This document shows positions 13,801 through 38,695 of a DNA stretch of 64,000 nucleotides, piece by piece. The notes below the pieces were generated by a model. That model was not told the origin of the DNA. It ran no database searches and saw only the letters and a program-made list of their open reading frames with translations. The DNA lies in the NCBI GenBank assembly GCA_001643675.2, contig LSRY02000054.1, forward strand, positions 62,001 to 126,000, written 5' to 3'. The DNA is from Monocercomonoides exilis PA203. Taxonomy: Eukaryota > Protista > Preaxostyla. A program made the translations under genes and the position numbers. The first letter of the stretch is position 1. Every line of letters starts with the position of its first letter.

Positions 13801-16800
13801 GCTTGAAAGTCTCTTCAGTGAATGCCTTCCAACTGTAATAGGAACATCGCAAGAAGGAGAAGGAGACAAGGAAAGTCTGTTCTTTTTCCTCATTCCTTCT
13901 CTTCCCACACTCAATCCTCTTCTCAATGGCCCCACTGTGATTGCATCTCTCTTCTTCAGTGCACTTTTCTTTTTCCTTCCTTCCAACGATACTTCATCTG
14001 ATGCTGATGCTGCTGAAATATCAATTGCCTTCTTTTTCTTTTTTCTGATGAGCTTCTTCTTCTTCTTCTTCCTTTTGATTTCTGTTTTCTTTTCATTTGC
14101 TGCTTCAGAACCAGCAAGCTCATCCAGCTCTCCTGATGCCTTGTGCACAATCCCCAATCTTGAGTGTGGAGCATCATTCTTCTTCTTCTTCTTCAGAGGA
14201 GATGATCGTGCTGATGAAAGAGAGCTTAATGATGCTTGTGAAGCTGATCGATGGAATGTTCCAAAAAGTTCATTCCCAAAGTGTGTTAATGACTTTGTTT
14301 TTGAGTGATTCACCACATTTGTTGTTGGAGTGTATAATGCTTCTAAAGGCAACTGTTCATTTTTGAATGGATCAAAACCATCTTTTGATGATTGCGCAAA
14401 AGTGGAAGATGTTATCAGTTCTGTTGACAAATCTTTTCCATTCAATCGATCATTTTGGTGATGAGTCATCTCCCTCTTTGATTTCAATGAAGGAATGGCA
14501 AATGGATCAACCGAAGAAGGCGTATGGTATGCTGTCATCCTATCAACACCTTGTGGTTGTGTCTCATCTGTTAATTCTTTCTCTGGTTGAGTTATTTTGA
14601 ATACTCTATCTCCATAATTATCACCTGAGATGTTTTCAATTAATTTGTCCTTTGAAGAGGAATTCATTTTCAATTCATTGTTTTTATTAAGAGCAGAATA
14701 TATTCTATTATCATCCTTTTGTAAATCGCTCTCGTTTTCTGACAAGTCAGCCAAATACAAACAGCTGGATGATTGAGATCTCTTCATCCGTTTATTCTTT
14801 TGTGGTTCTTCTTCATTTTCTTGTTGAATAATATCTGAAGTTAAACATTTGTCATCCAATCCTTCTGTTTGTCGAATATCATCTTTGTTTGTTGACTGCT
14901 CCTTCCCTGTTTTTATTTCATCGTTCTTTTTCTTTGAGAATGAAGGAATAATCATTTTGTATTGAACTGCCTTCGATTTCGCTTTGTCCACCTCTGCCTG
15001 TCTTTCATCTTCTTCACTCAACGACCACGCTTTCCTTTGCATCTTCCCCCTTTTTGATGATCTTCTCATTACACTCCTTCTTCCTCTTCTTCCTCTTGTC
15101 TTCCTCTTTCTCGATGGTGCATCTTTGTTGATCGCTAATCTTCTGTTTCCTCTGAAGTTAACATCTGCTTGTGTCTTTCTCCTCCTCGTCCAATCAACAC
15201 TTCCATTCAATGAAATCATTCTCTGTGATTTCATCATCACTCCATTTACTCCTTCCTCTTCATTGCCTATTTCTCTATCTGCATCGTTAGTGTTTCTGAT
15301 ATCTAACAATCCTGTTCCTTCAAACTGCTCTTCCCAATAGCCCTCTCCATCACTCATTTCTTTCTGTTGATCCTTGCTGATCAATTCGAGTGTCTGCATG
15401 GCATAATGAGAAGATGACTGAGAAGAGAGAGAGGAATATCTTCTGTTTGTGTGTTCTTCCTCTTCTCCTTCTGCATCGCTTGACTCAGTTGGAATGAAGG
15501 GAGCCATTGGAGAGTGGAAGTGAGAGTGAGACAGATCTCTTTGTTTTGGTGAGAGGAAGACTGAGGAAGAGGGAAGCATATGCTGAGTGGGTATTGGAGT
15601 GAGGATGGAGATATTTGATGAATGAGGAGAAGATGACGAAGGAGAAGAATGAGAACGAAAACGAGAAGATGAAGGAGAAGATGCATGAGAAGGAGAGGCA
15701 GAAGATGAAGGAGATGGAAGAGACGAGTGAGTGTTTGTGTGCGTATGAGTATGAGTATGAGAAGGAGAGGAAGAAGGAGAAGGAGAACGGCTGGTGTTCA
15801 TATCCAAATGAGAAGAGTGGAGAAGAGGAGAAGGTTTGGGAACACAACCTTTACTTTCAGATGAGTTCAAAGAAGACTTCGAAGAAGAAGTGGCAAAACC
15901 AGAAGTTGCTCCATTGAATGAAGGAGAAGAAGGAAATGAAGAAAGAGAGGCAGAAGAAGATCTTTGAAGTCTGTTTGGAGAGCAGTTTGGATGAGAAAAG
16001 GCAGTGAGAGTGAACGCCCTGTGCGATTTGCCATCTACAGCCTGATTGATGAAAGGAGAAAGAGAAGGAGAATGAGTCAGCTGCTGGCTGGATGCAGCAA
16101 ATATGCTGGATGCGATGAAGTCCTTCAATGTTGGTGTGATAGAGGCAGAAGGAGTATCACTCTTCTGTGCAAGTATCTTCCCTTCCATCTCTTCTTTCCT
16201 CTTCTCCTCGTCTTCCTTCTGCTCTGTCTGCATTTGAGAGAGCAATGACTTACCAGAGAGACTTGTGTGTGAACGAGACAGAGTGTCTGTCTTTCTGCCT
16301 TCGAATGTGGCATTCGATGAATCAGAAACAGAACTCAGTCTTCGTGCTGTTTCTTGTGTTTGTGGCAGGTTCTGCTCATTTGACATACTCAGAGGAGGAG
16401 TTGGCGAAGATCTTAATGAAGACGAAGAAGACGAGGCAGAAGAAGTGGCTGAAGAGAAGGCAGTTGAGTTGGCATATGTGAGAGAAGGAGAGATTGAGCC
16501 AGAAGATGCCACTTCTCCATTGATGAATGAAACATTGCCTGTATGTTCAGCAAATATTGGTGGCTCTCCATCAGTAACACTTATGGCATGAAATGCATTG
16601 GCCATCGAATCAGATTCAGTCATCCGAAGAATGCCAAGTGAAGAAACAGAATGAGAAGATGAATTAGAAGAGGAATTGGATGAAGAGTTTGATGAAGAAT
16701 TGTTAGATGAATTAGGTCTTTGAGGAGCAATGAGAGGGCTGGAGAGAGGGCTGTGTGTGGGAGTGATAGGAGGAGAGAAATGGGCAGATGATTTAGAGAG

Positions 16801-19800
16801 AATAGAAGAAGGAGACACGCTGCTTCTGCCAAAGTGAGAGGTGTACGGAGGAGGAGAAGGGGAAGGGGAAGGAGTGTGCTGAGAGGAGGAGATGAGCATA
16901 GCGCCAGAACCAGAACCAGAGACAGAGCCTGAGACAGAACTGGAAGAGACAGAAGGAGAGGAGGTGTTCATGGCAGGATAGGGCAGTTCAGGCAGAGGGA
17001 TTGTGTCAACACTCTGAGAGATGATGTGAGGCGAGGGGGTGTGGAGAGAGGATGTGGAAGGAGGGCGCTGTGGATGAGAGATGGGAGAGTTCATCAGATG
17101 AGGAGAGATGCAGAGACGAGAAGGAGATTCAGACACACTCTCTTTTCTGTCTCTGATTCCGAACAGTCTGCTGAAGAGTCCTCTTTTTGGCTGATGTTTT
17201 GTTGATCCGCCGAGAGAAGTGCCGTCAGAGAGAGAAAGAGGAGGAGAAGGAGTGGGTACATGGAATGCAGGTGAGTGGATGTCTCTGGGTGTTGTTGGGG
17301 TGAGGGAGGAGGAAGGAGAAGAGAGACGAGATTCTCCCAATGAAGGAGTGGGTGAGTGAGAATGGGAGTGCAGATGAGAGTGAGAGTAGCATCTGCAGAT
17401 GGGAGGAGTGGAAGAGTTGAGGATGGAGGAGTCATTTCTGTTGGAGGCATAGAAAGAGGACAAGATGGCAGAGGAAGATGTGGATGAGGAGAGGGTGCTC
17501 TGGCCGTTGTATGCATAGTCTGATGGATGATAAGAGGCATTTTGAGTGTTTTGAGTATTGTGAGTATTTTGTGCATTTTGAGAGATGGAGAAGACAGAAG
17601 GAGGAGGAACAGGAGGAGTGGCATGATGATGATGATGATGATGAGAGAGAGAATGGCTACTCGATGAAGAAGGCTGAGGAGAAGGTGAAGGAGAAGAAGA
17701 TGAAGAGGAAGAAGGGGTTGTTGAAGCAGATGAAGATGATGAGATGTTCTGTTGATATTCATAATCTGGTGATATACGTTGACTATTTGAATGAATATCT
17801 TTCTCTTTTTGTTGATTCTTCAGTGAAGTTGATGGAGAAACAGATGAATTATCTGAAGAAGATGATTTTGTGAGAAGAGGAGAAGTTGTAATCGGTTGAT
17901 TCTGATGAGAATGATGAGAATGATGAGAAGAAGAAGAAGAAGAAGAATTCTTTGGAGGTGTTGTTGTGCGTGAAGGTGGAGGAGACTCACAAACAACCTT
18001 CTTTGGCGATACATCAGACGAAGATCTCTTCAACACTGGGGTGCTTGGATGATCATTATGACTCCCTTCTTTCCTCTCAAATTGCTCTTCTTTTCCCTTT
18101 TTGTTCTTCAATTTGAGATATTCTTTGACCTTTGGCGAGGCATAAGACTCAGAAATCATCAGAGGAGAGTCAACAGAACTGCTCTGTCCAGCTGGCTTCC
18201 TCAGAACAACAGAGTAAGAAGCATAGAATGAGTCTGCGTCCACTGACTGATTGGCAGCAGAGGCAGATGACTGAGAATGGAGAGAGGTTGGTTCTATTTG
18301 ATTGTCCTGTGAATGAGAATTAGAATGAGAGTGAGAGTGAGAGAGTGAATGAGAGTGGGTGAGAGAGAGAGAAAGAGAAAGAGCATCTTCTTTGTTGGCA
18401 ATGCTGGAAGGACGGATGAGTTTGGAATGAGAAGGAGATGAGGCGATAAGAGATGTGGTTGATGGAGTTGAGGGGAGATGAGAAGTTGAAACAGATGAAG
18501 ATGATGAGGAAGAGGAAGAGGAAGAAGAGGAAAAAGAAGAAGCAGAAGAAGAATTCACATTGATAGCAGACAGAGCAGGAATAGGGCCAAAAGCGTGTAC
18601 AGAGCGAGGGGTGTGGATGATGATGCCGTCGACAGAGGCAAGTGTGGGGGAAGGACAAGAGATGCTGGCAGGAGAGTGAGGAAGAGAGATGCCTAATTGA
18701 GTGCGAGAGGCTGGGCTGTCTGTTGATTGGACACGTTTTGTGTGGGAAGAGAAGTGAGGAGAGGATTCGTGTGAAGGAGATGGAGAAGAGAGGTTGGATG
18801 GAACAGAAGAAGAAGAAGATGATGAGGTTGAAGAAGAAGAAGAAGAAGAAGAACTTGAAGAATATAAAACATTTGTTGATGAAGACTCAACAGGAGAAGA
18901 GATGAAATTAGGAAATGCATCTGAAGACATCGCAGATTTGTCTGTGTTGCCTTTCAAACTTTCACTTGTCACTTTGATCATTGATTCATTTGATTGATCC
19001 AATTCTGTTGAAATAGCCTTTTCTTCTCTCTTCTCAACAGAAGAATTGTCAACTTCTGCTTCTTTTCCTGCATTTCCATCAGAATGACTGGGCATAAAAC
19101 TGTTCGTATTGCTTAAAGGAGACAAAGGCAAAAATGTGTCCTTTTGATTGTTTTCTCCCTTTTCAAACTGAACTTTTGGCAGTTTTTGGTTGATAAATCT
19201 ATCATTTTGTGGATGAGAAAGAGAAATATCTGAAGTTTGAGTGATATTCTGTTCAGTTTCTGTTTCTGTCAAATGAGATTCTTCTTCATTGCATCTTTGT
19301 TCATATGCTGAATACATCGAAGATTTGACACTTTCTTCTTCATCCGCATCAACATCATCTTCCTCATCTTCCTCTTCTTCTTCGTCTATTGCTTGTGGAG
19401 AGGCAGGAGGATAATGCTGTTGAGAAGGGAAAAGAGAAGAAGAAGAGCCATGAGAGAGGAAAGGAGAAAGAGATCCAGCAGAAGAAGATGATTGTGTTTC
19501 GGTAGAAGAGGAAGAAGAAGAGGAAGGAGAAGGAAAAGCAGGAGGAGGAGAAGGAGGAGAAGAAATTGTATTTTGAGAAGAATTAGAAGAATTAGAAGAG
19601 TCTGAAGAAGACGATGAAGAAGGAGAAGAAGTTGCAGAAGAAGGTATTATTGAAGAAGAAGAAGAAGACGACGACGAAGATGAAGATGAAGATGATGAAG
19701 TTGTAGTTGTAGAAGAAGGAGAAGGTTCCACCTCATTTGGAGTAGATTCATTCATTTGAGTGCCATCTGAGTGCAAAGAGAGGCAGATGTGAGTGTTGCA

Positions 19801-22800
19801 GGTAGATTCATCGGCTGTTGGGGATGTCATTTCCTGTTGAGAGGAAAGAGTGCTTGTGATGGCTGTGTGACGAGACACAACACCTGTTGAGTTGTTGGTG
19901 GTGCTGCACAATGACTGAGGAGAGGAAGAAGAAGAGGAGGAGGAGGAAGAGGAGGAGGAAGAGGAGGATGAAGAAGACATTGAAGAAGAAGAAGATGAAC
20001 TTGAAGATGTGGATATAGAGCCAGATGAGTTTGTGTTAGAAGAAGTTGTATTTGTAACAGAAGGAGAAGGCGAAGGCGAAGGGAAAAGAGGAGTGAATGA
20101 AGGAGAAAAAGCAGCAACAGGAGAAGCAATCAAAGAGACACCGCCAGTTCCAAAAGTGGGCAAAGAGGCAGGTATGACGATGGTTGAGGCAGGCCTGGCT
20201 GGTCTGTCAGACATCGACGTGTGCTGCAGAGGGAAAGAGGAAGGGGTCATGTTCTGTGTGAGCTGCTCACTTGACTCAGAGGCAGATGTCATGGTGGCAG
20301 TAACTGAAGGGCTGGTGCCAGAGAGAGAAGGAGAAGAGCGGGTGGGTGACTGGAAGAGAGGAGGAGAGAAGGAGCGGAGATTGTCACCGGCAAAGACAGA
20401 AGAAGTGCTTATTGTTGTGGCTGTTGCTGATGATGCTGTGGCTGATGTGGATGAAGATGTCACTTTCTGATCATTCGCATCATTCCTTTCATTTTGTATC
20501 AGACTCAATGAATATGGCCGAAATTCCTGTTTTGCTGGCTTCTGTTTGGAATGTTGCACAAAAGTGTCTGCAAACACAGAAGAACGATGAGTCTTTGGCT
20601 GAGAAAAGAGAGCAGATGAAGAAGGCATTGAAAACGACTCTTGTGCAGCAGAAGTGTCAGAAGAGGATGCATTTGACAAATTGGTTGTACTTTCAGAGAT
20701 AGGAGGGGCAAAAGAAGAGCAAGAGGCAGGAGTCTCAGAAGAAGGGATGGTCAAACTGGAGGAAGATGAAGTAATACCAGAGGAGGAAGAAGAATAAGAA
20801 GAAGAAGAAGAAGAAGATGATGATAATGACTGAAACACATTCATAAGATTAGTATTCTTTGGTTCAATTTGTATGAGTGATTGCCCAGGTGCCAGAGGTG
20901 ATTGTACCTCTCCCACAATAAACTCTCCTTTTGTTCTTCTTTTCTCTTCCTTCGCTTTCTTCTTCTTTCGATCTCTCTTCTTCTCCTTTCTTCTCTTTCT
21001 CTCTTTCTCTCTTTTCATTTCTTTCAATGCTTCATATTCGTCTTTCTCTTCTTCCCCTGCAAATCTTCTGTTGCTGAATATCATATCCACTCCTTCTGCT
21101 TCAATTCCTTTCAGATATTCCTTTCCTTTCCTTCTTCTGTCGTGTCTGTGTTTGTGAATGCGATGATGACTGTGGTGATGGCCATGCTTGCTTTTATGAT
21201 GCCTCTTTTCTTTTATCTTTTCTTTCCTTTGTGAATGAGAAACAGAACCAACTGAATTTTCTCTGAGCAAAACACCTTCTTCGTTGATCATTCCTTTCCA
21301 CAACTGATTCCAATTGGATATATCATCATCTTTTGCTCCATTTTGGTTATTTTGTTGAATGTTTTTGTTTTGTTGTTTAATGTTCCCCTCATCTTCATCT
21401 CCAACAAAGCCATCTTCACTCATTCTCCCTTCGTCATTCTCATCAGCTCCACCTGAAAGAGGAGGAGGAAGTGCAACTGATCCTTTGCTGCATGAGGACA
21501 ATGAATGATTGTCAGATGGTATAGACAGTGATGACATTGTGGGTGATGTTGCCCAAGAAGATGAAGCAGAAGAAGAAGAAGAAGAAGAAGAAGAAGAAGA
21601 AGAAGAAGAAGAAGAAGAAGAAGAAGAAGAAGAAGAAGAAGAAGAAGAAGAAGAAGAAGAAGAAGAAGAAGAGAAGGAGGAAGAGGAATAAGAAGAAGGA
21701 ATTGCAAGATGAAGATCTACTTTCTTTCCACTTTCTCCTTCTGAAGTGAAAGGCTCATCTTTGAGCATTGTATTACCCTCAGAATCTGTTGTTGTTTCAT
21801 CTTTGCTCTTTGTGGAAGATGCAATTGAACGCAATGTGGAAACAGCTGTTGCTGGTTGAGTGATATCATCATCTGTTCTGTCAAATGCTCCTTCCTCTTT
21901 CAGAATATCTCCATCTTTCCATATCTTCTCTGCATTCTTCGCATTCACATCATACACCCTCACAGTTGTTGCTATGATCTTCCTGGGACTTGCCTCAAAT
22001 TCATGATGAGAATGTCTAGAGTGATGCAGATGTGTGTGCTTGTGATGCTTATGCTCTTCTTTCTGGTCATCTTTGAGATCGTCTCTGTGTTTCGAGTGAC
22101 TTTTGCTTTTGTGACTGCTTTTGCTGTGATGATGATGATGATGGTTGTGATGATGCTGATGCTCTGATTTTCTATTATTCGCATCCTTTTGATGATCTTT
22201 CACAGACAAATATGGAGTAAGTCTATCAAATGCCATTTGTGTTGTATCAATTTGTCCATCTTTTGTTTCCATATCAACGTCTATTGGTTTTCCAACGTTA
22301 CTCTTTTCAACTTCACTGCCTTCAGTCCCATCTCTCTTTCCCATCTCTTCTGTTTCCACTCCTTCTTCACTGTTTGTATCCACAACTGGCAACAGCTCTT
22401 CTTGTGGAGGTGATCGTGAAGGCGATCTCATCTTCATTCTGCCTATTCTTTTGAGAGTGTTTGCTCTTCTCTCTTTCTTTGCCTCGTCTATCAGATTCTG
22501 CACAGGAGAGGCAAATCCAACAACAGTCATTGCTCTCTTAGAGCGTGTGAGTGTGTGCGGATGAGGAGGATAAGGACGCTTTGAAGAGTTCTGTGGTGTT
22601 GTTGTGCTGGGAGAACAAGCTTCATTTGACTGAGGAGAGGCAGTTTGATCTGATTGAGAGAAGGATAGAGGAGGAAAAGCAGATGGAGTGGTAATACCTG
22701 ATTCTGATGAGGAGGAGGTAGAAGAAGTGGAAGAAGAGGAGGGAGGTGAATCAATTGAAGAAGAAGAAGAAGAAGATGAAGAAGAAGTATTAGTTGAGGA

Positions 22801-25800
22801 GTCAAAATAAGGAGAAGATGAAGGAGAGCAGAATTGAGGAGACAGATCAATCATCTGTTGAGCAGATGTCTGTGTTTGTGAAGAGATGGGAGTGGAAAGA
22901 GCAGACTGAGCTATCTTCTGAGGAGGAACAGGAGCAGGTGAAGGAGTGGATATTGTGACAGTATATTGATGAGTAGGGGAAGGAGTGAATGGAGTCGGGG
23001 CAGTTGTTTGAGTGATGGAAAGAGAGCCCAAATAAGATGAATTGGCAGAAGAGACAGAACGAGGGGTGGAGAAGACAGATGTTGTGGTTGAGGGTGTGGC
23101 CAATGCAGACTCACACAAAAGAGAAGGATGAGTGGGAATGATTGAAGAGGAAGGAGAAGAAGAAGAAGAAGATGATGATGATGTTGAAGCAACATTAACA
23201 GTATTCGCCATCCTTTGTGAGTAAACTCTTCCAACAGGAGGAGAAGGAGAAGGAGAGACAGAGAATAAAGAGAGGGTGTCAGGCAGAGCAGGAGATACTC
23301 CCATTGGAGAGACAGTCTCAGATGAAGAGAGAGCAGTTGTTGTGGCTGTGGTGGCGAGTGAGGTTGAAGTGGCATTTGATGTGAGTGCTTCTGCATTGTC
23401 TGCAGCATATGAGGGAGAGGGAGAGGCAGAGGGAGAAGCAGAAGGAGAGGGGGAGGGAGAGGGAGATAGAGAGGAAGCAGAGGGAGAAGAAGAAGGTGAA
23501 AGAGAAGGAGAAGGAGAAGGAGATGAAGATGGAAGAGACGCATCAGAAGAAGAGGATGAGGTAGAAGTGGTGAATGTTGTCATAGTCATAGCCATAGCAT
23601 CATCAGAGTCATCGTTGTCTCCATTTGAAGATGACTCAGGGGGAGAAGGAGAAGGAGAAGGGAAGACAGAAGACAGAGGCATCATAACTGTTCTGCTGCG
23701 TGTGTGTCTGAAGGAGGCAGGGAGGGTCATTGTGATACGAGGATTGTTGAAGAATCTGTCTGCCCCATCGCCATTTCTTGTCTGAGGAGACTCCATTGAA
23801 GAAGAAGAGGAAGAGGAGGAGGATGAAGATGTTGATGATAGAATATTATTCAGTTGAGACAGAGCATCATTCCCATTCTGCATATTAGCCATTCCCATTC
23901 TGCTCTCCTTCACTTTCGCTGCAGTGTCTGTGCGTGTGCGTGTCAGAGGAGGTCTTACAATGTCATCACTCACTTCTCCCCAGGGTGTCTCAAATGCCAT
24001 CGTCTTCAGATCAGTCGGGTCAAACGAGGCAATTGAGATGGCATCCACATCACTCGATGAGACCGTTGAGAGAGAAGAGAGAGTGGGTGAGTGGCCTCGT
24101 GACTTGGAGGATTTTGTAGGTGAGGAATGTGATTGAGATTGAGACTGTGAATGGGAATGGGAATGGGATTGGGAATGGGAATGAGAATGAGAATGAGAGT
24201 GAGAATGTGATGAATGTTCATGTGATTTTGAGGAAGACGATGAAGATGTGTTTGTAGATGTGACAGAAGTTGAAACAGTTGATCTTGTTGCATTCAAATC
24301 AAATGAAGAAGATGATGAAGAGGAAGAAGAAGAAGACGCTTCAGAAGAGAAGCTATATGCTTGTGTGTCAGCTGTTCTGAATGAAGAGTTGGATGAAGTC
24401 GAAGCATAAGGGAATGTGGTTGTGTGAGTGAGAGAACGAATATCCAGTGCATGTTCAGCGTGTTGTGTTCTGCTTCTCTTGAGTGAATGTTTGTGTGGAT
24501 GAGGAGTATTCAGAGGAGATGACAGCAATTTGGATGAGGCAGCCATGTTGAATGAGGATGTGACTGTGCTGTGTGTGGCAGAGGAGGAAGAAGAGGAAGG
24601 GGAAGAAGAAGCTGAAATGGAGGAAGCATTGAGTGAATTGTCTGATGAGTCATATTCTGATGATGATCCTTCGATTGATGAAGAAGAATAAGAAGATGAT
24701 GATGATGTGGATGATGACGAGGAAGAGGAGGAAGTATAAGAACCTCTGTCCTCATCAGTATCACACATATATTCATCACCATCATTTCTGTCATCATCAG
24801 AATCAGAAGAATCAGATGAAAAAGAGGAAGATGAAGAGGAAGAAGAAGAAACAGAATCTTCATCACTTGAAGAGTCAGCCATTTCTTTCTCACTCAAAGC
24901 AGATGTGGCAGAGCGAGTGATGGTGTGTGACTTGTCAGAAGGAGACAAATCAGATGAATAAGCATTTGATGACAGACCTTTTGAGTTGGTTGTTGTTGGA
25001 ATTGAGTCTGGAATGGATGGTGCATTGGATGCTGGCAAGGATGAAGAAGAAGAAGATGAAGAAGAAGGAGAGGAGGATAAAGCAGATGAATCAGAAGAGG
25101 AGGAGGAAGAGGAAGAATAAGAAGAAGAGGAAGTGATGCTTGAAAGTGTTGTGAGAGTAGCAGTAGAAGTGAACACAGCAGAACGGGTGGCATTTGAGTA
25201 GTTCAAAGAACCCTTCCTCATTTCCGGAGAGAGATGAAGCATGAATGAAGTGGCTGTGTTTGACAATGGAGTCTGACTGGGTGAAGAATCAAGAGAACAC
25301 AAAGTGGAATTGCCGACAATTGAGGAAGGTGTATGTCTCTCAGAATAAGATGAAGGAAACTCACTTTGATTGACTTGTTCTGTTGAGACAGTCATCAACT
25401 CATCACTCACATCACTCAGCAGCTTTCGCAGATAATCAAAGGACTTCTTGTTATCTTCTGCATTGCTGGAGTCTTGTTCGATTGTTCTTTTGCCTTTTTC
25501 CCCTTCAATTTCTGAGTTAACTCGTGACAGTTCTGTCTGACTTGACTCATTCAACTGATAAACAGCACTTTTGTGCTTGATTGGCTTGTCATTCCTGAAC
25601 ACTCTCTCTTTCTCGTGATGAAGCTCAAAATTTGTGTCTGAGGAAGAAGAAGCTATCTGCCCTGGATGCTCATATGAAGAATGCAACTCTTCCAATGAAG
25701 AATATTCTGAAATTGGCTGAATATTCATCTCATCATCATCATTGTCGTCATCATTTTCTATTTTCCACTTCTTTATCTTCATCGTCATCATCTTCTTCTT

Positions 25801-28800
25801 CTCTTCGCTCTCCTTCTGCATTGATGGATAATTAGACTGGAACAAATGGACATCTGCATCCACCACAGACATCGACTGTGAACGAGGTGTGTTTCTGACA
25901 GGTGTTGTTTGACTGGACAGGAGTGCAAGAGGAGGAATCTGAAGAGAAGCAACAGAAGGATAGTTGGAACTGCTTGGAGATGTGCCATGGGTGATGGAGA
26001 GGGAGCGATCAAGCATTGTTGATTCTTCTCTTTGAAGTGATATTCCACTTGTTTGATTATTGGATACTCCTTCTTTGAGATGATGTTGTTCATTGCTCAT
26101 ATCTCCATTGGTGTTGTCTTGTATGTTTTGGAATATTCTTCTGAATTTCTCTTCAAATTTTCTGTTTTTGGCTTCTTTTCTTTCTCTCCTTCTTTTCTCC
26201 TTCATTTCCTTTTTCAATCTCTTTTCTTCCCTTTTCCTTTCCTTCTTCTCTCTCTCTTTCTCTTTATCCTTCCCCTTCAATTTCTCCATCCTTTTCTTCT
26301 CTTCATCAACACTTATCCTCTTAATCACAATTGTTCTCTTCTTCTTCCTCTCCTCTGATGACATTTCATCCACTCCATCTTTCTTCTCATATCTCATCTC
26401 TTCTATCGGAGCAAGTGTGCTTTCCATTCCTTTCTCTCTCCCACTCTCTTTCAGATGCCCTGACTTCCTCATCGACAGATGAGGAGTGAAATTCTGCCCA
26501 AAGAGTGTATTTGCATCTGATGAAAGAGAAGGAAAAGAAGAAGAAGCAGAAGAGGAGGAGGAGGAGGAGGAAGATGAAGTTGAACCAGATGTGACTGAAG
26601 ACATAGAGAATGTTGGAGAAGGAAGAGGGGGCATACTTCCGTTGACAGGAGGAGAAGTGGAAGATGTTGGATTGAGTGACAGAGAAGGCACAGAAGATGA
26701 CAGAACACCAAATGAAGGAGAACGAGGCATAGGATGAGTGAAGGTGGACGATAGCAATGGATAGAATGAGACACGAGACGGAGACTCAGAAAGAGATGGG
26801 AAAGAAGAAAAAGAGGAAGAAGAAGGAAGAGAAGAAGGCAAAGTTGAATGAGCATGTGACGAATGACTGGCATTGGAAGTGAAGGGGACAAAAGATTTGA
26901 GAGCAGCAGCGGAGGAGGAGGAAGAAGAAGAAGGATTAACAGCAGAAGGATTAAGAAGTTGAGGAGATGAATGAGAAGGAGTGACATTGTATGACATAGC
27001 AAATGATACAGTGTTTGCTCGTCTGTGTTTTGGATGAGTGAACATCAGAGGAAGAGGAGAAGTTGGAAGGACGTTGATGTTGCCCTTGGGAGAGCGAACA
27101 AGATGGCTGATGTCATTTGATGATGATGCACTGAATGAAGAATGTGTGGATGTTGTTCCAATGACAGGAGGATGAGGACTGCCAGGGTGAGTGACAAAGG
27201 AGACAGCATGTGGGGGCATTGAAAGGAAGGAGGAAGAAGAGGCTGAAAGAGAATAGGAAGGAGAAAGAAGAGGAGAAGCAATGGAGGAAGAAGAGGAAGA
27301 TGAAGAGGAGGAGGAGGAAGAAGAAGAAATAACATTCATTGAAGATTGCCTCCGATGAGTGCGATGTCTTGTTGGTGCCTTTGGTGATGTTGGAGGTAAA
27401 AAATGTTTTTGAGCCAGTTCAGAATAAATAGATGAAGAAAACTGCTGTTTTGATAAGGATTTCATTGGAAGGTGAGTATTCTGATAAAATGAATGCATCT
27501 GATCAGCAAAATGCTCAGTCAACAAGAGAGTGTTTGAAGGGAGTGAACGAGAAGGAGAAGAGGAAAGAGGAAGAGTGGCTGATGAGTTGAAGCGAGGAGA
27601 GCGAACACACAAAAGAGGAGTGAGAGAAGAAGTTTCCAAAGCAGATGAGGAATGAGTATAAATAGAGGAAGAAGAAGATGCAGAAGAGGAGGAGGAAGAA
27701 GAATATGTTGAAGAAGGAGAGTCTGTTTGTGGATAAGGCAATTCATGTGGATGTTCAGGAGATGATTGAGTGAAGACAGAAGGAGAAGCAAATGACTCAG
27801 AAGGAGCAGAGGGTAATGCTGAGCTGAGAGAGAGGTCAGTGAATGAGGCAGATCCCTTTGAATCAGCCTCAGATGAATGAGATCGTTGCTTCTCTTGTAT
27901 CAATGGATGGATCGATATTTCAGACAAATTGCTTTCTTCTGATGCATTTTGTGTGGATAGTGTGGAATGAGAGGATAACGTGGGAACAATAAATTCTCTT
28001 CCTTTTATTTGCTTCTCATTCTGATTGTCTTTTGCTTTATTCATTCTGTTATTTTGATTGATTTCATTGTTCTTATCATCAACTGATGGGATGAGCTTGG
28101 CAGTCTCAAAGACACTTGCAGGAATCAATGCTAATTTTGCTTCTTCTTTCTCTTTCAATTCATTTTTGAGATTCATTTCTTTGTTGTTGTAAAGTTCTGC
28201 TTCATTTTCATTAACATTTTTGTTATCTTTTGATAGCTTTTCAATTGCCTTCAGAATAGAATTAGGCGATCGATGTCTTTTGTGATGCTTTGAACTAGCA
28301 TTTGAGTGATGTCTCTTCTTCTCTTCTTTCTCCTTTTCTTTCTCTTTTCCTTTTCTTTCTTGTTTGTCTTGTTTGTCCTTCTTTCCTTTTGGACTTGTTT
28401 TATCTTCATCTTCCTTTTTCTCGCTTTTCAACTTATCTTCTTCAGCTTTTTCTTTTTCTTTCTCTTTCTCTTCATCTCCTTCTAAAGCATGATGATTATG
28501 TCTATGTTCATGATTATCTGACTTCTTTCGTGTCTCATTCTTCATCGACATCTTTCTCTTCTTAATCTTCTTCTTCTCTTTTTCTTCTTCTCCTTCTTCT
28601 CCTTCTTTCTTTCCATCAACTTCTTCTTTTGCTTCTTTTGATTCTTTATCTTCTTTATCTTCTCTTTCTTTCTCCTTTCTGCTTGTTCCTGCTTTTGATC
28701 GAGTGTGCTTAGAAGATGTGTGATGAATGGATTGTCTTCTGTTTGAGTGATGTTGTGTCTCATTCACTCCATCTGATGTTGTTCTGTTTGAAACTGACTC

Positions 28801-31800
28801 AACATTTGGAATGGTATCTGTGGCTGATGTTGTATTGTCTCCAACTTTGAGTGTGGTTGCTGTTGCACTCGAAGAAGAAGAAGAAGAAGCAGAAGCAGAA
28901 GAAGAAGATGATGATGATACAGCTGTTGAGGCTGTTGATATTGCCTTCTTCACTTTTGGTATGCTGTCACGATGTGTTGAGTGTGTGTGATGTTTTGTTG
29001 GACTTGTCAGATTGCTTTTCTCTTTCTTTTCATTTTGATTGGATTCTCCTGTTGTTTTATCTTTCTCTTTTTCTTTTTCCTTTTCTTTTGTTTTTCTTTT
29101 CTCTCTTTTCTTTCTTTCTGCTCTTCTTCTTTCTTTCTCCTTATCTTTCTCCTTCTCCTTCTCCTTTTCATTGATTCTTTCCTTTGCTTTTTCCTTTTCC
29201 CTCTCTTTAACCTTCTCCTTCTCTTTCTCTCTTTCTTTCTCTTTCTCTTTCTCTCTTCCTGTTTTGTGCATATTCAGTTCCTTCATCCTCCTTCTGCTGC
29301 CACGTGGATGCAATTGCAGTCTTGTCAGCTGTTTCTGCTTCGACTTCCTCGTCTTGTGATGGAGCAACCTCTGCTTCTTAATCTCTGCTGCTGACTCTTC
29401 AAACAGCTTCTGTCCTCTTTTGATTCTGGCTGCTCTGATGTCTTCACTCACATCCTCCATCCCAATGTTCTTTGTCGGAAATCTTGCTTCTCTGTTCTCA
29501 AAATACTCTGTTGTCACTTCATCTCCTTCGAATCCTGGCAGAAATACAGGCTCACAATCATAAACAGTCTCCCACTCAACTCCTGCAAAGAATGAATGTC
29601 TTTTAATCTCTTCTGCTCCATGGCTGCCAGGCACCATCTCATTCAGCTCATCTCCTTCCCCTTCTCCTTCTCCTCCACTTCTATTCCCATTCCCATTCAC
29701 CACATCATTCGAACCTAATCTCTTGTCTGGGTCCTTGTTGAGCAGACCAAGCAGCAGTTCAATTGCCTCGTCTGATGTCTCTTCGGGAAGTAGAGACAAA
29801 TCCACATCCTTCTTCAGAATGTTGTCAAATACCTGGTCTCGTGTTTCTGCATTGAATGGAGTGATTCCAGTGAGCATCTCATAGAAGATGATACCCACAG
29901 CCCACCAGTCCAATGCAAATGTCATTGCACTCTCTCCCATCGTGATCACTTCTGGTGCAATATAATCAGGTGTCCCTATGATATGTACTCCTGATGACTG
30001 CTTGTTATTCTCCTCTTGTTCTTGTGGCTGCTCTGTCACCTGTTCATTCTCTTCTTGTTCCTGTTGCATTTCATCTCCTTCAACCTCTTCATCTCCTTCA
30101 TTGTTGTCTATTGCTTCATTATTCTCTCCATTGAAAGATGCCTCTCCTTCAAATGCTTCTTGTTTCTCTTGTTGAATGTGTTGATCCTCTCCTTCATTTT
30201 GAATAAGATCTGATGGAATATCTTTTTCATTCAATAAGTTTTGTGAGTTGTGCAAAGAAGTATTTTCTGATTGAGGAATATTCGATAATTCAGCCGTATT
30301 CATCTGTTGTTCTATTATTCCTACTTCTCCTGTCTGAATGCTTGTCTGACTGTTATTCTCTTCAGATGTTTGTTGAACATTCAATTCATTTGTTCCATCT
30401 TCTTTCTCTTTTCCTTCAAAACCCAATAATGTTGTATTGTTATTGTTATTATTGTTATTCTCATCTGATTGTTTTGGTGTAGATGGCAATGAAGTCACCA
30501 CCCCCAACACACTTCCTTTGATTTCGACTGATTCATCCACACTTCCCAGTTCATTTGAAGAGAAAGCAAAAGAGATTGAATGTTTTCCTTGTTCTGTGCC
30601 ATTCCCAGTCTGATCCATTCCAATCAGCCCATTTGATGATGAAGTCAGATAAGTTGTGGGAGAAAGAGGAGGAAAGACTACAGAAGAGGCAGTTGTGTGT
30701 ATATGTGAAGAAAACACAGGAAATACATCAGAAACAGAAGATGCATCAGATATGAATGAAGATGTGGATGAAGATTCTTTTAAAAGGTTGACTGATTCTT
30801 GTCTCTCTAAAGTGTTCACACCTTCTTCTTCTTTGACAGAAACAGAAGGAGAAACAGAAGAGGAAGGAGAAGGGGTGGGAGAAGGAGAGGAAGAAGCAGA
30901 GGCAGAAGAAGAGGAAGAAAGAGATGATGGAATGTGAGGAGGAGTTGGATGATGAGGTGAGCGAGGGCTGTTTTGATTGCTGCTACGAGGTGTTGGAATG
31001 CCAGAGGAGTTGTGTGAATTGAAGGGTGAAACAGGAGGAAGTTGAGATGAAATGAAAAGAGAGTTGGAAGAGGAGTGAGATGGTGAATAACATGCAGAGG
31101 AAGAAGAAGATGATGATGACGATGATGAAGTGAAAGAAGAAGAAGAAGAAGAATTCAGAAATGTTACAGAAGAAGTTTCTGAAGAAGAAGGAGGAAATTG
31201 AAAAGTCTGTTCGTGTTTTGGTGAAGAGAAGAGATTTGGTACATTAGAAGACAAACCAGGTGGAGTGAGTGGATGGCGAGGAAGGCGCTGTGGCTGAGGG
31301 GCAGCTAATGAAGAGCTGGATGAATCTTTCACCATCTGCTGAGATGCCATGGAAGATGGAGTGATTCTGCTGAATGATCTACTCCTGTGCATTCTGAATG
31401 ACTCGTTCGATCCTCCTCCTCCTTCTTTGATATCTGCTCCAATCTTCCCCTTTCTCCTTTCTTTCATCATCAGCTCCTCTTCAAATCCTCTTCTGGAAAC
31501 ACTCTTCTGTCTGGGTGTCTGTGTCTGTGTGTGTGTGGGAGAGGATGATGAGATTGGGAGTGGGGCAGGTGTATTTCTTCTGGAGGTGGATCTTCTGCTG
31601 TGCTGGCCAGATGAGACAGCAGAGGAAGGAGACAGAGGATGAGGTGGAGACTGAGGAGAAGGCGGATCGAATGTGAATTCAACATAGTTTGGGGAGTTTA
31701 ATGATGCAATGGATGAAGAGAAGCCACCAAGTGAAGGAGTGATGATGGAGAGGATGGGCCTTTTCTTCATTCCTCCTGGCTTGTTCTGTGTGTTTGATGA

Positions 31801-34800
31801 GGAAAGAGCACCAGAAGAGGAAGGAGTGATGGAGAGAGAGGAAGGAGTGACCGAACCAAGTGCTGGAGAAGGAGAGCGAGAAGATCGCTTTGATGAAAAA
31901 GAATATGAATTGGAAGAAGAAGAAGAAGAAGAAGTTGAAGAAGAAGATGATGATGAAGTATTTGTAAATGATTGATTTGGTTGTTGTGATTGGAGCGTGG
32001 ATGTGGCTGTGGATGTGGATGAATTAGCAGTTGAAGCGGAAGAAGAAGATGAGGAAAATGATGAAGAGGAAGAAGTTGAAGTGGATGAATTATGAGCCAA
32101 AGGAGAAGGGCCAGGGGAGACAGAACGTGCCTGTTTGGGAGGGGAAGGGTTAGAGAGAAGTGGAGAAGACACATTCTGAGTGGAAGATGGGGGAGTGTGT
32201 GATGATCGCAGGGAAGAGACAGAAGAATGAGAACGTTTGAGAGAAGAAAGAGAAGAAGAGGATGAGATGGAAGAGAGGGATGAAGTGTTTGGCGTGTGAG
32301 AAGTGAAAGAGGAAGAAGAAGAAGAAGAAGAGGAGGAAGAGGAGGAGGAGGGGGGAATTGGAGGGAGAGGAGAAGAAGTGGATGAAGGGACAGAGAGATT
32401 AGAACTGGAATGGAAATGAAATGAATGAAGATGTGGTGAAGATGAAGCAGAAGAGGATGAAGATGATTGTTCAGAAGATGGAAAAGAGGAGGAGGAAGAA
32501 GAAGAAATTGGAAATTGAGAAGAAGGAGAAAGAGGGAGAGGAACAGGAGGGAGAGGAGCAGGAGCAGTGACAGATGCGCGTGAGTGAGAGAGAGGAGGAG
32601 TGGGAGAGTTGTGAGAGGAGGAGATGGAAGAGCGAGAAGGAGAATCACTCGAAGTAGGATGAAGTGGAGAGGGAGTTCTGATGGAAGAGGAAGGAGAAGA
32701 GGAAGGAGTGGGTGTGGATGAGAATGAAGAGGAGGAGGAGGAGGAAGAGGAAGAAGAGGAAGAAGAAGAAGATGGATTGTGACATGGTTGAAATGAAGTG
32801 GCTCTGATTGAAGGGGGAACATGAGGAAAGCAATAAGAGGTGGAAGAAGAGGAAGAGGAAGAGGAAGATGAAGATGAAGAGGAAGAAGAGGAAGAGGAAG
32901 AAGAAGAAGAAGAAGAAGAAGCATGTGATGTGGAGATGTGATAAAACCCTTCTCTTTCATCTTTGGCTGAAGGATGCACAATTTGAGGAGTGGATATAGT
33001 TGCTTTGACTGTGTTCTGTTGAGATGTATTGGAAGATTGATTATTCGAAGAAGAAGAAGAAGAAGAAGAAGAAGAATTAGAAGAATTAGAAGAAGAGAAG
33101 GAGGAAGAGGAAGAGGAAGATGATGAATTAGAAGATGAATTAGAAGAAGAAGAAGAACAGTTATTCATCAGAGGAGAGTGAGAAGGAGAGGTAGATGAAG
33201 AAGCGATGGTATCAAAGAATGCACCAGATGAGTAGTTGAAAGAAGAATACTGATGAAATGGAGTGGGAGCAAGGGGAGTGGTGAAGATGGTGGTTGGCTG
33301 GTATGTTGATGGCCTCATGTTGAGTGTGTCTTCTTTGTCTGACTCAAACATCGATGTGGATGAATTAACAGCAGTAGAAGAGGAAAGAGATGAAGAAGAG
33401 GAGGAAAGAGAAGAAGAGGAGGAGGAAGAGGAAGTTGAAGAAGAAGTTAAAGAAGAAGATGATGTAGCAGACTTCAATGGAAGAGAAACAGCCATCTGAT
33501 GTGAATGGAGTGTGCCATTCTCTTCTTCTTCTTCTTCTTCTTCTTCTTCTTCTTCTTCTTTTCTGTCAGAAAGTGCTGTGTGTGAATCAGATCTGAAAGT
33601 GTTATTTCTCTTCTTCTTGTCAAACTGGAGTGAGACACATGAACCAGAGTGATCAGTCGTGTCTTGTTCGATTGTCTGAACAGAGACAGCTGGAGATGGG
33701 AAGGCAGATGAAGGCTCAGATGACACAGCTGCGGATGATGTTAAGGGAGAGTGTGTTTTGGATGATGGAGTTAAAGTTGATGAAGAAGTGGAGGAAGAGG
33801 AAGAAGAAGATGATGATGATAACGAAGATGAAGATGCAGATGATGTAGTTGTTGCAAGTGTCTTAATGGTCATCACAGGAGATATCTTTGGAGTGGAAGG
33901 AGGAGTTGATGAAGGAGACGAAATAGTATCTTTCAGCCTGTTGTGTGAGTCAGAAGGTTTCAAAGAGTCCATTTTAGATGAAGAAACACTCTCCAACTGA
34001 TCATTTGCCTCAGATGTTGTCTGGTGGATGTCTGAATAAGAGTTAGATCTGCTTCTTGTCTGCTCAGAGACAAAAGAGGAGAGCGAATGAACTGATCCTG
34101 TGTGTGCATCAGATGTGACGGTGGCTGTGGAGTTCGATGGAGAAGAGGCAGAGAAAGAGAGAGAGAGAGGAAGATGAGGCACAGACATTGGAACCATCTT
34201 GTGTGTGTGTTCAGTGTCGAATGAGAATGCCATGTCTGAATGTTTGCTGAGCGGAATATGCTCAGGAACTGATGACTCACTCATTCGACGTGTGGTAACT
34301 TTGCTCTTTTTGTGGTGTTTTCTCAAATTTCTCTGGTTTGATCGCTTTTGATGGCTTCCTTTCTTGTCTTGTTTGGTTGAGCCTTCCTCATCTTCACCCT
34401 CATCCTCATATTCTTCTTCGTCGTCGTCGTCTTCGTCTTCTTCCTCCTCTTCCTCTTCCTCTTTGAATTCATCAACTGTCTCATTCTCTTCCTTCAATCG
34501 TTTGCTCTCATCATCATCTTCATCTGCCTCTTCTTCATTTTCTTCTTCATTCTCCTCATTCTCTTCTTGCACAGTGTGTGGACAGCTCTGTTGTGTGTCT
34601 GCAGATTCAGATAATGTTGACGATGTTGATGTTTCAGTCAGAGAGTGTTGCAGATGAAGTGATGAAGGAGGAATGAGTTGCTTGAAAGGAAGAGTTGCCT
34701 CAAATGGATGAGCAGATGAGTTACCAATTAAACAAGAATTGGCACTAGCTTCATCTCCTCCTACTTTAATTTGTGTCCGAACATCAGACAAAGAAGAAGA

Positions 34801-36924
34801 GGATGAATTGGCTAAAAGACTGTTTGGTGACTCCTTCTGAGGATTCGGAGCATCAACAGCAGAAGGAGAAGGAGAAGCAGCAGAAGAAGAGATAGACAGA
34901 CGAGAAGGTGAAGTGAATGAGTTTGGAGTGTTACCAGGAGAAGGCGAATGAGTGAGGGAGAGGGAGAAAGATGATTGAGTGACCAATTGAGATCGATTGG
35001 CTATTGGTGACTGAATGTGTGGCTGTTGGTTGGTTGAAGCAGGAGAGCCAGAAACAGAGTGATGAGAAGAAGAAGAAGAGGAAGAGGAAGGAGAATGAGA
35101 GGGAGTGGATGAGTTCTGGAGGACAGAAGAGAGAGAAGCCAAAGAGGAAGCAGGATGTGGTGTGTGTGAGCGAGGGGATGAGGCAGGAGAGCTTAGAGGA
35201 GAAGAAGAGGATGAAGTGTTTGGCTGTTTGACAGGCAGATTCTCAAAGGAAGGAGGAGTCATCGAAGGCGAAGGAGAAAGAGAAGAGCGGATGAAGTTGA
35301 GGACAGGAGAATCGAAGTGCCTGAAGGAGGAGCGAGGTTGATGGTGAATGCGGTTGGCAGAGGAAGGAGAAGGAGAAGGCGAAGGAGAAGGCATCCGATG
35401 AGAAGAAGAACTGATTGGTGTGTGGTGACGAGATGTTGAGTCTTTGTTCTCTTTGTCCTTCTCCTTCTCTGATCCTCTTTCTCTCTCTCTCTCAATTGAT
35501 CTGTTGCTCTCACGTGAAGTTGAAGATGGATGCGTATGTGATGCACAGGTCTCTGAATCATTCACAGATGACTCTAATTCATTCATCAGCTCCCTGTGCT
35601 TCTTCACCGTTGTTGGAGATAGAAGGCCACGTGAAAGGTTGTCACATCCTGCTTGGCTGGACTCTTCGCCATCTGTTGTGTTCACTTCAGCATCTGTTCT
35701 GTTCTCCACTCCATTTTCTCTCTCGTTGCTGGGCATTCGCTGTTCTTCTCCTTCTGAATAGCTCCCTTCATCCATCTCCATGTCTGTCTCTGGATAGGCC
35801 TCCTCTTCTTCCTGCTCGCCATGCACATTCTTCCAAAATGCAGGCACAGACAATCCAAAGTCAGTCAGCCTCAGATGCCCATCTTCGCCAATCAAGATGT
35901 TATCTGGCTTTAAATCACAGTGGATGATGGCGTGCCGGTGGAGGAAGTCAACAGCAAGCACTATTTCTGCCAAGTATTGTTTGGCCACGTGCTCTTCAAA
36001 GCATCCAAATGACACAAGAAGTGAGAACAGATCCCCTCCTGGCTGAAATTCACTTACAAGATAAAAATTCTCTTTTGTCTGAAATGAACAGGCCAAAGGT
36101 ACAATGAAATCGGTTCTGACTTCTCGTTCTTCTTTAACATCTTCTTCATCTTCTCCGTCTTGTAATCTTTTTGTTTTGCTCCCATCTAAAGTCCGCGCCT
36201 CAACGGATAATGACGCCAAAATTTCATATTCCAATATTAGACGCTTTTGAACTTTAGCTTCGGTCATGGAAGAACGCTTAAGCACCTTCATGGCATAAAG
36301 CCTGGTTTTCTTCTTTTTGATTATTTCTTCTTTCGCTTTCTCCTTTTCTTTTTCTTTCGTTTTGCTAAATAATCCTTTATTAGATTCTCTTTGCGACGTC
36401 CATCTTTGAAGTTGCCTGGCGGGTCTCACCAATAAAACACGCCCATACGCGCCAGCGGTAATTGGTTTTATAATTTCAAAATCGGCAAGCGTAAAAATTG
36501 GAGGAGGAGGAAGCGGAGGAGGTGGTTTTTTAGCTTCAACGCCTGGTGAATGTGAAGGTGAAGTATTTTGGCTCGTTACAGGTTGGGGAGATGATGACGG
36601 TGATGGAGAAGTATTTTCTTTTGCTTTTTCTTGTTTTTTAGTATTTTCCTCATTATCAGAAGATTTCTCAAGTTGATCATCTCTTTCTTCGAGTTGAGGT
36701 GGAGAAAACTTCTTTTCTCCACGTTGAAGAGAATCTTCATTTCCATTAGTTCTGTGAAGATTTTTGAAAAGCAAATTTAATTTTCATTAAATATGAAAAG
36801 TTAACATGGGTGAAATAAAATAATTTCTTAAATCATCATAAAGACAAAGATAATTTTCATACGATTCGCTAGGAGTGAGTTCATAATTAATTTTCTCACC
36901 CTCAAGCTTTGTAAGCTGGCTCAT
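7867..36924 (-). CDS. Giant Greatwall/MASTL/Rim15-type AGC Ser/Thr kinase (~9,648 aa); join(36924..36863, 36751..7867)
   Basis: N-part: DFEIIKPITAGAYGRV, YAMKV, EFQPGGDLFSLL, HCDLKPDNILI, LTDFGLS (~36490-35848). C-part: IIGTPDYIAPE, DWWAVGIIFYEMLTGITPF, DPDKRLG and an AGC tail ...TTEYFENRE (~29980-29490). The frame is stop-free for 28.9 kb and ends in TGA. The ATG is supplied by a predicted upstream exon. Confidence 0.9.
21569..21670. repeat. Pure (GAA)34 microsatellite encoding poly-Ser (TCT) in the giant kinase
   Basis: Uninterrupted 102-nt GAA run. Confidence 0.95.
36752..36862 (-). other. Predicted 111-nt spliceosomal intron (phase 2)
   Basis: The minus strand reads GAA TC|GTATGA...TCTTCACAG|A ACT AAT GGA. 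Splicing joins MSQLTKLEGEKINYELTPSES in frame to TNGNEDSLQ. The intron is AT-rich, and the long ORF has no in-frame ATG before kinase subdomain II. Confidence 0.8.
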
Positions 36925-37205
36925 TTGAACAAATAAAGAACTCTCCCCAAAAAATTATGTGTGATCTTTGTTCCGTAATAAGTAAATAAGTTTTGAGTTC
37001 GTTCAATTACAAAATAACGAAAAACAAATGTTTATTAAAAATTCTATTCCATTCATTTATGTATTGAAAATTGAAATAATTTTATCAATTGTCCAGTTTT
37101 GAGAAAATTGAAAAAAATGAAATAAAATTGGGTAATTTTCGATCGGTTTTTATTGTTGTAAAATCCTGTTTTCCCAAAAGCCGATTGCCATACGGCCCCC
37201 AAAAA
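36925..37205. promoter_or_regulatory. Putative bidirectional promoter between the two kinase genes
   Basis: 281 bp of AT-rich sequence between divergent ATGs at 36924(-) and 37206(+). Inferred from geometry only. Confidence 0.55.

Positions 37206-38663: not shown

Positions 38664-38695
<32 letters not shown>

Follow-up and report, generated by a model that had tools for sequence, protein, structure and literature searches.

How can a protein kinase remain a kinase when nearly two thousand residues interrupt its activation segment? The question is raised by a giant gene on the minus strand of contig LSRY02000054.1 of the oxymonad Monocercomonoides exilis PA203 (assembly GCA_001643675.2). The window analysed is a 64,000-nt stretch (positions 62,001 to 126,000 of the contig, forward strand), and all coordinates below refer to it. 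A first-pass annotation, made from the sequence alone, had described the gene as a Greatwall-type kinase folding round an enormous disordered loop. The insert was found to lie in a single open frame and to be retained in RNA contigs, both kinase halves keep their catalytic residues, and the insert carries a short conserved site resembling the hydrophobic motif that is missing from the tail. The gene is divided as follows.

36863..36924, minus strand: exon 1, 62 nt, ATG at 36924 (MSQLTKLEG...), in frame with exon 2 after splicing; a contig of RNA run X3 joins 36863-36963 to 36751
36752..36862, minus strand: 111-nt GT-AG intron, 21% GC, skipped in RNA runs X2, X3 and X5 (sides of 94-101 nt) and unspliced in DNA run X1
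7867..36751, minus strand: exon 2, a single 28.9-kb stop-free frame ending in TGA; the RNA comparison covers 29450-37100
35848..36489, minus strand: kinase N-terminal half, with the G-loop GAYGRV (36453-36436), the AMK lysine (36294-36286), αC LEYEIL (36234-36217), HCDLKPDN (35922-35899) and DFGLS (35862-35848)
29977..35847, minus strand: activation-segment insert, 1,957 amino acids (aa), rich in Ser, Pro, Glu and Thr, with imperfect short codon repeats and no credible Pfam domain
31666..31686, minus strand: hydrophobic-motif-like site YVEFTFD inside the insert, within the RNA contig piece 31161-31898
29476..29976, minus strand: kinase C-terminal half and AGC tail, with GTPDYIAPE (29976-29950), DWWAVG (29910-29893) and PVFLP...YFENREARFP (to 29476)
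29386..29475, minus strand: subfamily-specific tail extension (EDIRAAR...), a long predicted helix at the place where relatives carry the hydrophobic motif
7870..29385, minus strand: C-terminal Ser-rich region of ~7,200 aa, 26% Ser, no Pfam domain, its translation inferred from the open frame only

Reading frame and transcripts

A six-frame scan places DFGLS and the start of GTPDY (29976) in the same minus-strand frame, 5,871 nt or 1,957 codons apart, exactly as first annotated. This frame has no stop within the insert, where base composition predicts about 82 (P(0) ~1e-36); the five other frames hold 51-158 stops each. Around the kinase the stop-free frame extends over 36783..7867 (minus strand, 9,638 codons). 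The spliced coding sequence, 36924..7867 (minus strand), specifies 9,648 aa with a predicted mass of ~1.03 MDa, and splicing of the 111-nt intron brings its ATG into frame. Neither TAA nor TAG occurs in frame, the code is standard, and recoding of these two codons to Gln, which was considered, is unneeded. The length and 21% GC of the intron, the standard code and the 41-47% GC of the coding DNA agree with figures published for M. exilis, in which introns average 119-124 nt and 25-28% GC (PMC6759080, PMC8767320; these papers, like all those cited below, were available in part, and statements drawn from them are limited to those parts).

Eight public sequencing runs from two studies in total, four of them recorded as RNA, hold 83-94% of the sampled words of 29500-36900. 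Three RNA runs of one study (X2, X3, X5) and one DNA run (X1), each in the form of contigs, were compared over 29450-37100; contigs lose rare isoforms, and the comparison stops short of the ~7,200-aa tail. Only one of the 15 contig joints listed, 36752-36862, combines CT..AC ends with long sides (94-101 nt). It is present in all three RNA runs and absent from the DNA run, so the RNA contigs are cDNA. The other 14 joints have non-canonical ends and sides of 18-22 nt that lie in purine repeats, and they are distributed among RNA only (7), DNA only (5) and both (2). In each RNA run one contig leads from the spliced 5' end through DFG and 736 nt into the insert. From the C-lobe side a further contig of X2 and of X3 reaches 1,112 nt into the insert, and X5 has two overlapping pieces. 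The repeats at which the RNA contigs break within the insert are also those at which the DNA contigs break, and none of the listed pieces differs between them in letters or indels. The RNA contigs listed contain no GT-AG joint in the insert, nor does its sequence hold a low-GC intron-like GT-AG pair, its GC content per 110 nt being at least ~27% versus 21% in the real intron. The proposed check for in-frame introns thus yielded a single intron near the start, and in the RNA contigs of the three runs the insert is not an unspliced intron.

Kinase core and tail

The whole frame was scanned against Pfam in six pieces. Pkinase was matched by the N-terminal half (E 6e-29, Pkinase positions 52-145) and by the C-terminal half (E 8e-20, positions 151-259), and the remaining four pieces gave no match above the cut-off. 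For each half the top PDB sequence match is human Greatwall (E 4e-31 and 3e-24). The kinase begins at about residue 110 of the protein, and its N-lobe holds two further acidic/basic inserts. The β3 Lys, the αC Glu, the catalytic Asp, Lys and Asn, DFG, APE and the αF Asp are all kept, and the catalytic loop reads HCDLKPDN, not HRD. Catalytic status is set by residues of the Lys/Glu/Asp type and not by the HRD Arg (10.64898/2026.02.19.706771), and judged by its residues the protein should be a catalytically competent kinase.

The AGC path of the C-tail is kept (PxxP, NFD-like and turn regions; a Pkinase_C-like match is a lead only), and it is intact just as far as PVFLP...YFENR and the turn-motif region. 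After the C-lobe the window protein contains no FxxF(S/T)F/Y or F(S/T)FxN; a candidate tail site, TRFAQNPF (frame residue 8332), scores no better than chance (66 of 500 shuffles). The earlier statement that both halves and the AGC tail are intact therefore stands for the halves and their catalytic residues, but not for the whole tail, which lacks the hydrophobic motif; the change of HRD to HCD had gone unnoticed.

Family placement

The closest proteins come from the oxymonads Blattamonas nauphoetae and Streblomastix strix (E 1e-48 to 1e-56), followed by a gap to 1e-32. Trees were calculated from 324 trimmed kinase columns, with 70 rows picked by hand for spread; rows that were incomplete or held several kinases were omitted. 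Nine oxymonad proteins join the window protein in one clade, with support in the Shimodaira–Hasegawa-like approximate likelihood ratio test (SH-aLRT) of 100 for the joined halves, 99 for the N half and 100 for the C half, and with 100/100 under LG+C20 (42 rows). Since both halves fall in this one clade, they do not derive from different kinase families, the outcome that had been named as a possible refutation; in the C-half tree the outgroup is not monophyletic. The clade sits with MAST, Greatwall, Rim15 and IRE against RSK and citron (94/85, mixture tree), in a polytomy, and the superfamily signatures are present: the KPI(S/T)xGA(F/Y)GxV G-loop, DFGLS, GTP(D/E)Y(L/I)APE and the YFxxR tail. 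The two named Greatwalls group with chytrid, Mortierella and dictyostelid proteins (99/91), and the window protein falls outside the Rim15 clade (100/100).

Approximately unbiased (AU) tests conflict. On 70 rows, with the two named Greatwalls in the set, grouping with Greatwall gives p 0.36; on 27 rows, a set of low power in which the RSK control (0.066) is itself not rejected, the values are 0.028 for Greatwall, 0.055 for Rim15, 0.50 for MAST, 0.18 for IRE and 0.11 for Paratrimastix. The Greatwall-type identity first given to the gene is not borne out by the trees, in none of which the clade is sister to Greatwall, and with ~7,200 aa after the kinase the protein is more than a kinase. As judged from the sequences, the window kinase belongs to an oxymonad-only HCD subfamily of the MAST/Greatwall/Rim15/IRE superfamily.

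The other members (Blattamonas P0009, P0010, P0012-P0015, P0129 and P0132; Streblomastix P0011) are annotated just as putative Ser/Thr kinases. They share with the window protein HCD, DFGLS[F/V], an EYE αC, an insert at the same place with TF[DE], a YFxxRxxRFP...ED(I/L)xxAR tail and a long disordered C-terminus. They differ in having 480-3,057 aa and 9-15% Ser, versus 9,638+ aa and 26% Ser, and inserts of 8-717 aa (at least 730 in the partial Streblomastix protein) versus 1,957. The HxD residue is C in 10/10 clade members and R in 50/52 relatives; the DFG+3 residue is F or V in 10/10 members, R or K in 31/51 relatives. At the usual tail place the hydrophobic motif is absent from all nine complete members, one of which has a distant, likely chance match ~630 aa downstream; 49 of 144 relatives match the motif somewhere in the tail. 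What follows YFxxR in all nine is RFP...ED(I/L)xxA(R/K), predicted to be helical.

A conserved motif in the insert

The AGC hydrophobic motif is FxxF (10.1101/2020.06.30.179580). In the oxymonad clade the pattern [FY]xx[FLMP][ST]F[DE] occurs exactly once per insert in all eight complete insert-bearing members, each with TF[DE]; this makes 8 matches in 4,902 insert residues versus 0 in 13,799 tail residues. It is retained while the loop ranges from 164 to 1,957 aa, and it was found neither in the 2,078-aa tail of the neighbouring kinase nor in the inserts of the non-oxymonad relatives (0/144). YVEFTFD of the window resembles the FSNFSFKN and FGEFTFKN that IRE and Rim15 relatives carry ~190 aa after GTPDY.

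For a held-out test a profile was built from five short-insert Blattamonas paralogues. In the window protein it gives the motif site the top score among ~9,600 positions, and in P0015 and P0132 too the motif site comes out on top, the score being reached by 15, 25 and 31 of 2,000 block shuffles for the window, P0015 and P0132, respectively. Two Greatwall inserts behave as chance (1,562 and 204 of 2,000 shuffles). These comparisons indicate that the motif is under selection, and very probably it is functional. Across the clade the loop length spans 164 to 1,957 aa, a natural series in which a 7-residue motif alone is kept and all else in the loop varies.

Predicted structure

The window protein is too long to be folded whole; a paralogue and the window's C half were modelled. 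P0012 (205-aa insert, 54-row alignment) was modelled with AlphaFold2. Both halves have a predicted local distance difference test (pLDDT) of ~90-98, with 275 residues at or above 90, and form one AGC domain, and the insert, motif included, lies below 50. The model matches PKG, Akt, PKC and PKA with Z 36-37 and a root-mean-square deviation of 1.7-2.3 Å over 296-309 residues. The match stops at the turn-motif region, short of the hydrophobic motifs of PKA and Akt (model 571-578 = PKA 338-340 / Akt 449-451). The tail-extension helix has a pLDDT of 89-97 in P0012 and ~88 in the window's C half, whose mean is 75. A kinase folding round a giant disordered loop, as first envisaged, is thus supported by the paralogue's model, its catalytic activity being judged by sequence.

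Proposed mechanism and alternatives

Our preferred reading is that an active AGC domain is formed from two halves round a 1,957-aa disordered loop, in which the motif acts as the hydrophobic-motif switch missing from the tail; we assign this whole chain a probability of about 0.45. The halves would assemble as a canonical AGC fold, as modelled for the paralogue. Activity would be independent of an activation-loop phosphate, since the RD arginine is missing and GTPDY is not preceded by a phospho-acceptor. The loop and tail would consist mostly of tolerated Ser-rich expansion, serving as a phospho-sponge and an extended tether. The invariant Thr in the motif would be a site of phosphorylation, and the motif would dock on the αB/αC/β5 groove of the N-lobe and set αC. 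Greatwall provides a parallel, having no tail motif and a working pocket for which residues of its non-conserved middle region (NCMR) were suggested as a possible filler (PMC5342071, 10.1101/2020.06.30.179580). The parts of this chain differ in strength: a translated loop round an active kinase is probable, and for the kinase's own N-lobe, rather than a partner, as the target of the motif the chances seem slightly less than even. The broadest formulation looks doubtful, namely that oxymonads rewired AGC activation by dropping the loop phosphate (HCD) and the C-tail hydrophobic motif and by moving the latter into the activation loop, where it acts in cis from tethers 1,388 and 570 residues long in a 1-MDa protein. 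If true, oxymonads would offer a natural example of the in-loop filler that was once suggested for the empty pocket of Greatwall. Kinases split by long loops have been described before (PMC12024977, PMC11961639, PMC12732324), and the purpose of a Greatwall-type insert and the filler of the Greatwall pocket are stated as open (PMC5342071, 10.1101/2020.06.30.179580); given the natural length series, this question becomes testable in the small paralogues. In the literature searched no description of the subfamily, the motif or the protein was found, most subscription papers and the M. exilis kinase tables being beyond reach.

Several observations weigh against this reading. The pattern was derived post hoc from the same sequences, which is why sequences were held out in the test above. 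Its strict FxxF-type form occurs in the window protein alone, five paralogues having FxxL/M and two F/YxxP; it is absent from P0014 with its 8-aa loop, possibly a gene-model artefact, and has no match in the 730-aa partial insert of Streblomastix P0011. In PDK1 and PKA the residue after the αC Glu and the β5 floor residue bind the phosphate and the phenylalanines of the motif. The former is Y/F in 9/9 members versus R/K in 49/52 relatives and the latter F in 9/9 versus L in 45/52, so that by residue comparison the pocket appears remodelled across the clade. In the P0012 model, for which ~6 of 54 alignment rows carried the motif and no phosphate was modelled, the motif is unfolded (pLDDT ~31-34 at residues 301-310); the model supports folding of the kinase around the loop but not docking of the motif. 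A complex predicted from both kinase halves and a motif peptide of 33 aa (score 0.07, mark 0.34; alignments unused, peptides outside calibration) speaks neither for nor against docking. The RNA support consists of contigs of one study over 29450-37100, the long X2 RNA pieces listed covering at least 4,316 of the 5,871 insert nt (besides 820 shorter pieces), and the protein product is a prediction.

Some of these points favour a close rival, an active kinase with the same loop in which the motif is a docking or phospho-site for a protein acting in trans (an upstream kinase, for example PDK1 or TOR, a phosphatase or an adaptor) and the kinase's own C-terminal helices set the N-lobe. A motif conserved yet unfolded in the model, the altered pocket residues and the tail extension, predicted helical with high confidence where the match to PKA and Akt ends before their hydrophobic motif, all agree with it. 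The Rim15 insert is a regulatory landing site. The same is known of the Greatwall insert (PMC11961639). Since the motif occurs exactly in the clade that lacks a tail motif, and no partner was identified, we regard this explanation as tenable at odds clearly short of even. Very unlikely, in our view, is a pseudokinase or giant disordered scaffold, in which the loop blocks folding or HCD kills activity: more than 95% of the protein is low-complexity, the RD arginine is lost and the N-lobe bears its two further inserts, but all catalytic residues, on which and not on the Arg catalytic status rests (10.64898/2026.02.19.706771), are kept, and across 315 kinase columns the protein is 64% identical to P0129. 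It is hardly likely at all that in-frame splicing takes out most of the insert, be it in the main isoform or in a minor one, or that the insert is an assembly artefact. None of the listed contigs spans the whole insert, the seven RNA-only joints have sides of 18-22 nt, one more joint exists beyond the 15 listed, and the RNA piece 33569-33778 has lower depth; nevertheless, none of the 14 non-intron joints has CT..AC ends, seven of them occur in the DNA run, and paralogues bear inserts at the same place, in addition to the shared break points, identical letters and missing low-GC GT-AG pairs described above.

Nor do we think it likely that the gene is the organism's Greatwall, that is, the mitotic kinase phosphorylating endosulfine to inhibit PP2A-B55, with an overgrown NCMR. 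No MAST, IRE or Rim15 kinase is among the top 60 PDB matches, so the Greatwall match of both halves speaks for superfamily placement only. The kinase lies near the N-terminus, DUF1908, PDZ, PAS and receiver domains and the tail motif are lacking, and the 70-row test did not reject the grouping; MAST-family kinases are, moreover, generally able to phosphorylate endosulfines (PMC11961639, PMC12732324). Against it stand four trees in which Greatwall is never sister to the window clade, the low-power rejection on 27 rows, at least eight Blattamonas paralogues instead of one gene, HCD, the 7,200-aa tail and the scarcity of full consensus sites for cyclin-dependent kinases (CDK), 3 among the 83 S/T-P of the insert. 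The endosulfine/PP2A-B55 module predicted at first is borne out, weakly, for B55 alone: a B55 orthogroup includes Monocercomonoides, Blattamonas, Streblomastix, Paratrimastix, Trichomonas and Giardia (PMC10703272, supplementary table). Giardia has lost MAST (PMC3218828), and since it has B55 nonetheless, B55 alone predicts nothing. An endosulfine annotation was not found in 11 supplementary files (one of them was incomplete, and small proteins are easily missed). Literature on Greatwall or endosulfine in Monocercomonoides, Giardia/Trichomonas or excavates, or on long insertions in protist kinomes, was not found either, most subscription papers being beyond reach.

Size and composition of the insert

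The Ser/Pro/Glu-rich low complexity noted at first is confirmed by the composition of the insert (Ser 30%, Pro 9%, Glu 7%, Thr 7%), as is a length roughly four times that of human MASTL (1,957 versus ~500 aa). None of the 153 kinases measured has a longer activation loop. The clade inserts have 8, 164, 176, 198, 201, 205, 546, 717 and 1,957 aa, with at least 730 in the partial Streblomastix P0011; in 144 non-oxymonad relatives, some of them near-duplicates, the median is 80 and the maximum 785 aa, 2.5 times shorter than in the window. The human record is ascribed to the MASTL loop (~500 aa; 10.64898/2026.02.19.706771), and the window insert raises the tolerated length of an activation loop to about four times that.

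Because the 7,178-aa tail and the 2,078-aa tail of the head-to-head neighbouring kinase also contain 26% Ser, the size of the insert appears to stem for the most part from the Ser-rich character of these proteins. All three regions share a TCT/TCA bias and imperfect codon repeats, and the Blattamonas paralogues have 9-15% Ser and are 3-20 times shorter. Giant Ser-rich proteins look common at this locus; the length alone would then mostly reflect genome style, or local Ser-rich bloat, and not this loop in particular. Loop and tail may have expanded in step, the simplest route being repeat slippage that disordered regions tolerate. When insert and tail were compared by BLASTP with 10 Preaxostyla relatives, a single match appeared (E 0.51). 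Two candidates in the insert were rejected, a Voldacs match below the cut-off in an acidic stretch and a basic-LxI docking-like motif (KKRPILSIITP), which is not conserved. Human Greatwall with its insert removed is still active in vitro (PMC5342071), and Greatwall insert deletions gave no rescue in mouse cells (10.1101/2020.06.30.179580).

In Blattamonas P0014 only 8 residues separate DFGMS from GTPDY, and its nearest relative, P0013, has a 198-aa insert; either loop and motif were lost naturally or an intron was falsely predicted. Streblomastix P0011 stops inside the insert and has no C-lobe, and in Blattamonas P0132 the N-lobe is missing its start; gene models in these two genomes are probably disrupted by giant loops. 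In a search among proteins of 5,300-16,867 aa only obscurins turned up (8 of 152 candidates), and neither there nor among the listed matches of the kinase halves did the window's own protein appear.

Other features of the window

37206-44252, plus strand: second kinase (Pkinase E 6e-68), 2,348 aa with the 2,078-aa Ser-rich tail, head to head with the giant gene
45735-46202, plus strand: ISXO2-like (IS1595) transposase fragment, Pfam E 5e-14
46238-60194: ~250-nt partly palindromic repeats, 6 copies with 61-70% identity to the reference, resembling miniature inverted-repeat transposable elements
48539-48867 and 50564-50892: second inverted repeat, 329 nt, 99%
52287-55235: long inverted repeat, 926-nt arms 100% complementary and 530 nt apart, with 338-nt outer arms at 97%
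60468-63802: 20/21-nt tandem units in both orientations around an open reading frame at 61549-62244

We take the second kinase to be of NEK type by its motifs. The ATGs of the two kinase genes are 281 nt apart, which suggests a shared promoter. The inverted repeats are either a foldback element or an assembly artefact. The open reading frame at 61549-62244 has no Pfam match at E 0.01, and its FHSLRSG stretch recalls a tyrosine-recombinase box. No tRNA genes were found in the window.

Comparison with known kinases

MAST1-4, KIN-4 and Dop share the superfamily kinase core with the window protein, and MAST is the least costly partner in the AU tests on 27 rows (p 0.50). MAST1-4 differ by DUF1908 and PDZ, by loops of 29-31 aa from DFGLS to GTP, by the kept tail motif and by their reliance on the basic DFG+3 residue and the HRD arginine, both lost in the oxymonad clade. 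MAST is activated without a loop phosphate (PMC12732324).

Fungal Rim15/Cek1/Ppk18 and plant IRE resemble the window kinase in the G-loop, DFGLS, GTPDY(L/I)APE and the insert in the activation segment, which has 65-190 aa in Rim15 and ~40 aa in IRE versus 1,957. They possess N-terminal extensions (long in IRE), a receiver domain (Rim15) and often FxxF(S/T)FxN in the C-tail (FSNFSFKN in IRE), whereas the window protein has none of these; over its whole frame Pfam gave no match to a PAS region, receiver domain, DUF1908 or PDZ.

Greatwall/MASTL (human 5LOH/8V5H, Hydractinia P0277, Ptychodera P0296) is alike in that the kinase lies near the N-terminus and has a long insert of non-conserved sequence dividing it between DFG and APE, in the lack of a tail hydrophobic motif and in having no phospho-acceptor just before GTPDY. 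Its insert has ~500 aa in human and 401 and 785 aa in P0277 and P0296; the last, from the hemichordate Ptychodera flava and Greatwall-like, exceeds the ~500-550 aa usually quoted. Unlike the window kinase, Greatwall keeps HRD, shows no significant match to the motif in the inserts of P0277 and P0296, is not sister to the oxymonad clade in the trees, and in the sequences compared ends 140 aa after GTPDY, where the window frame continues for ~7,200 further codons.

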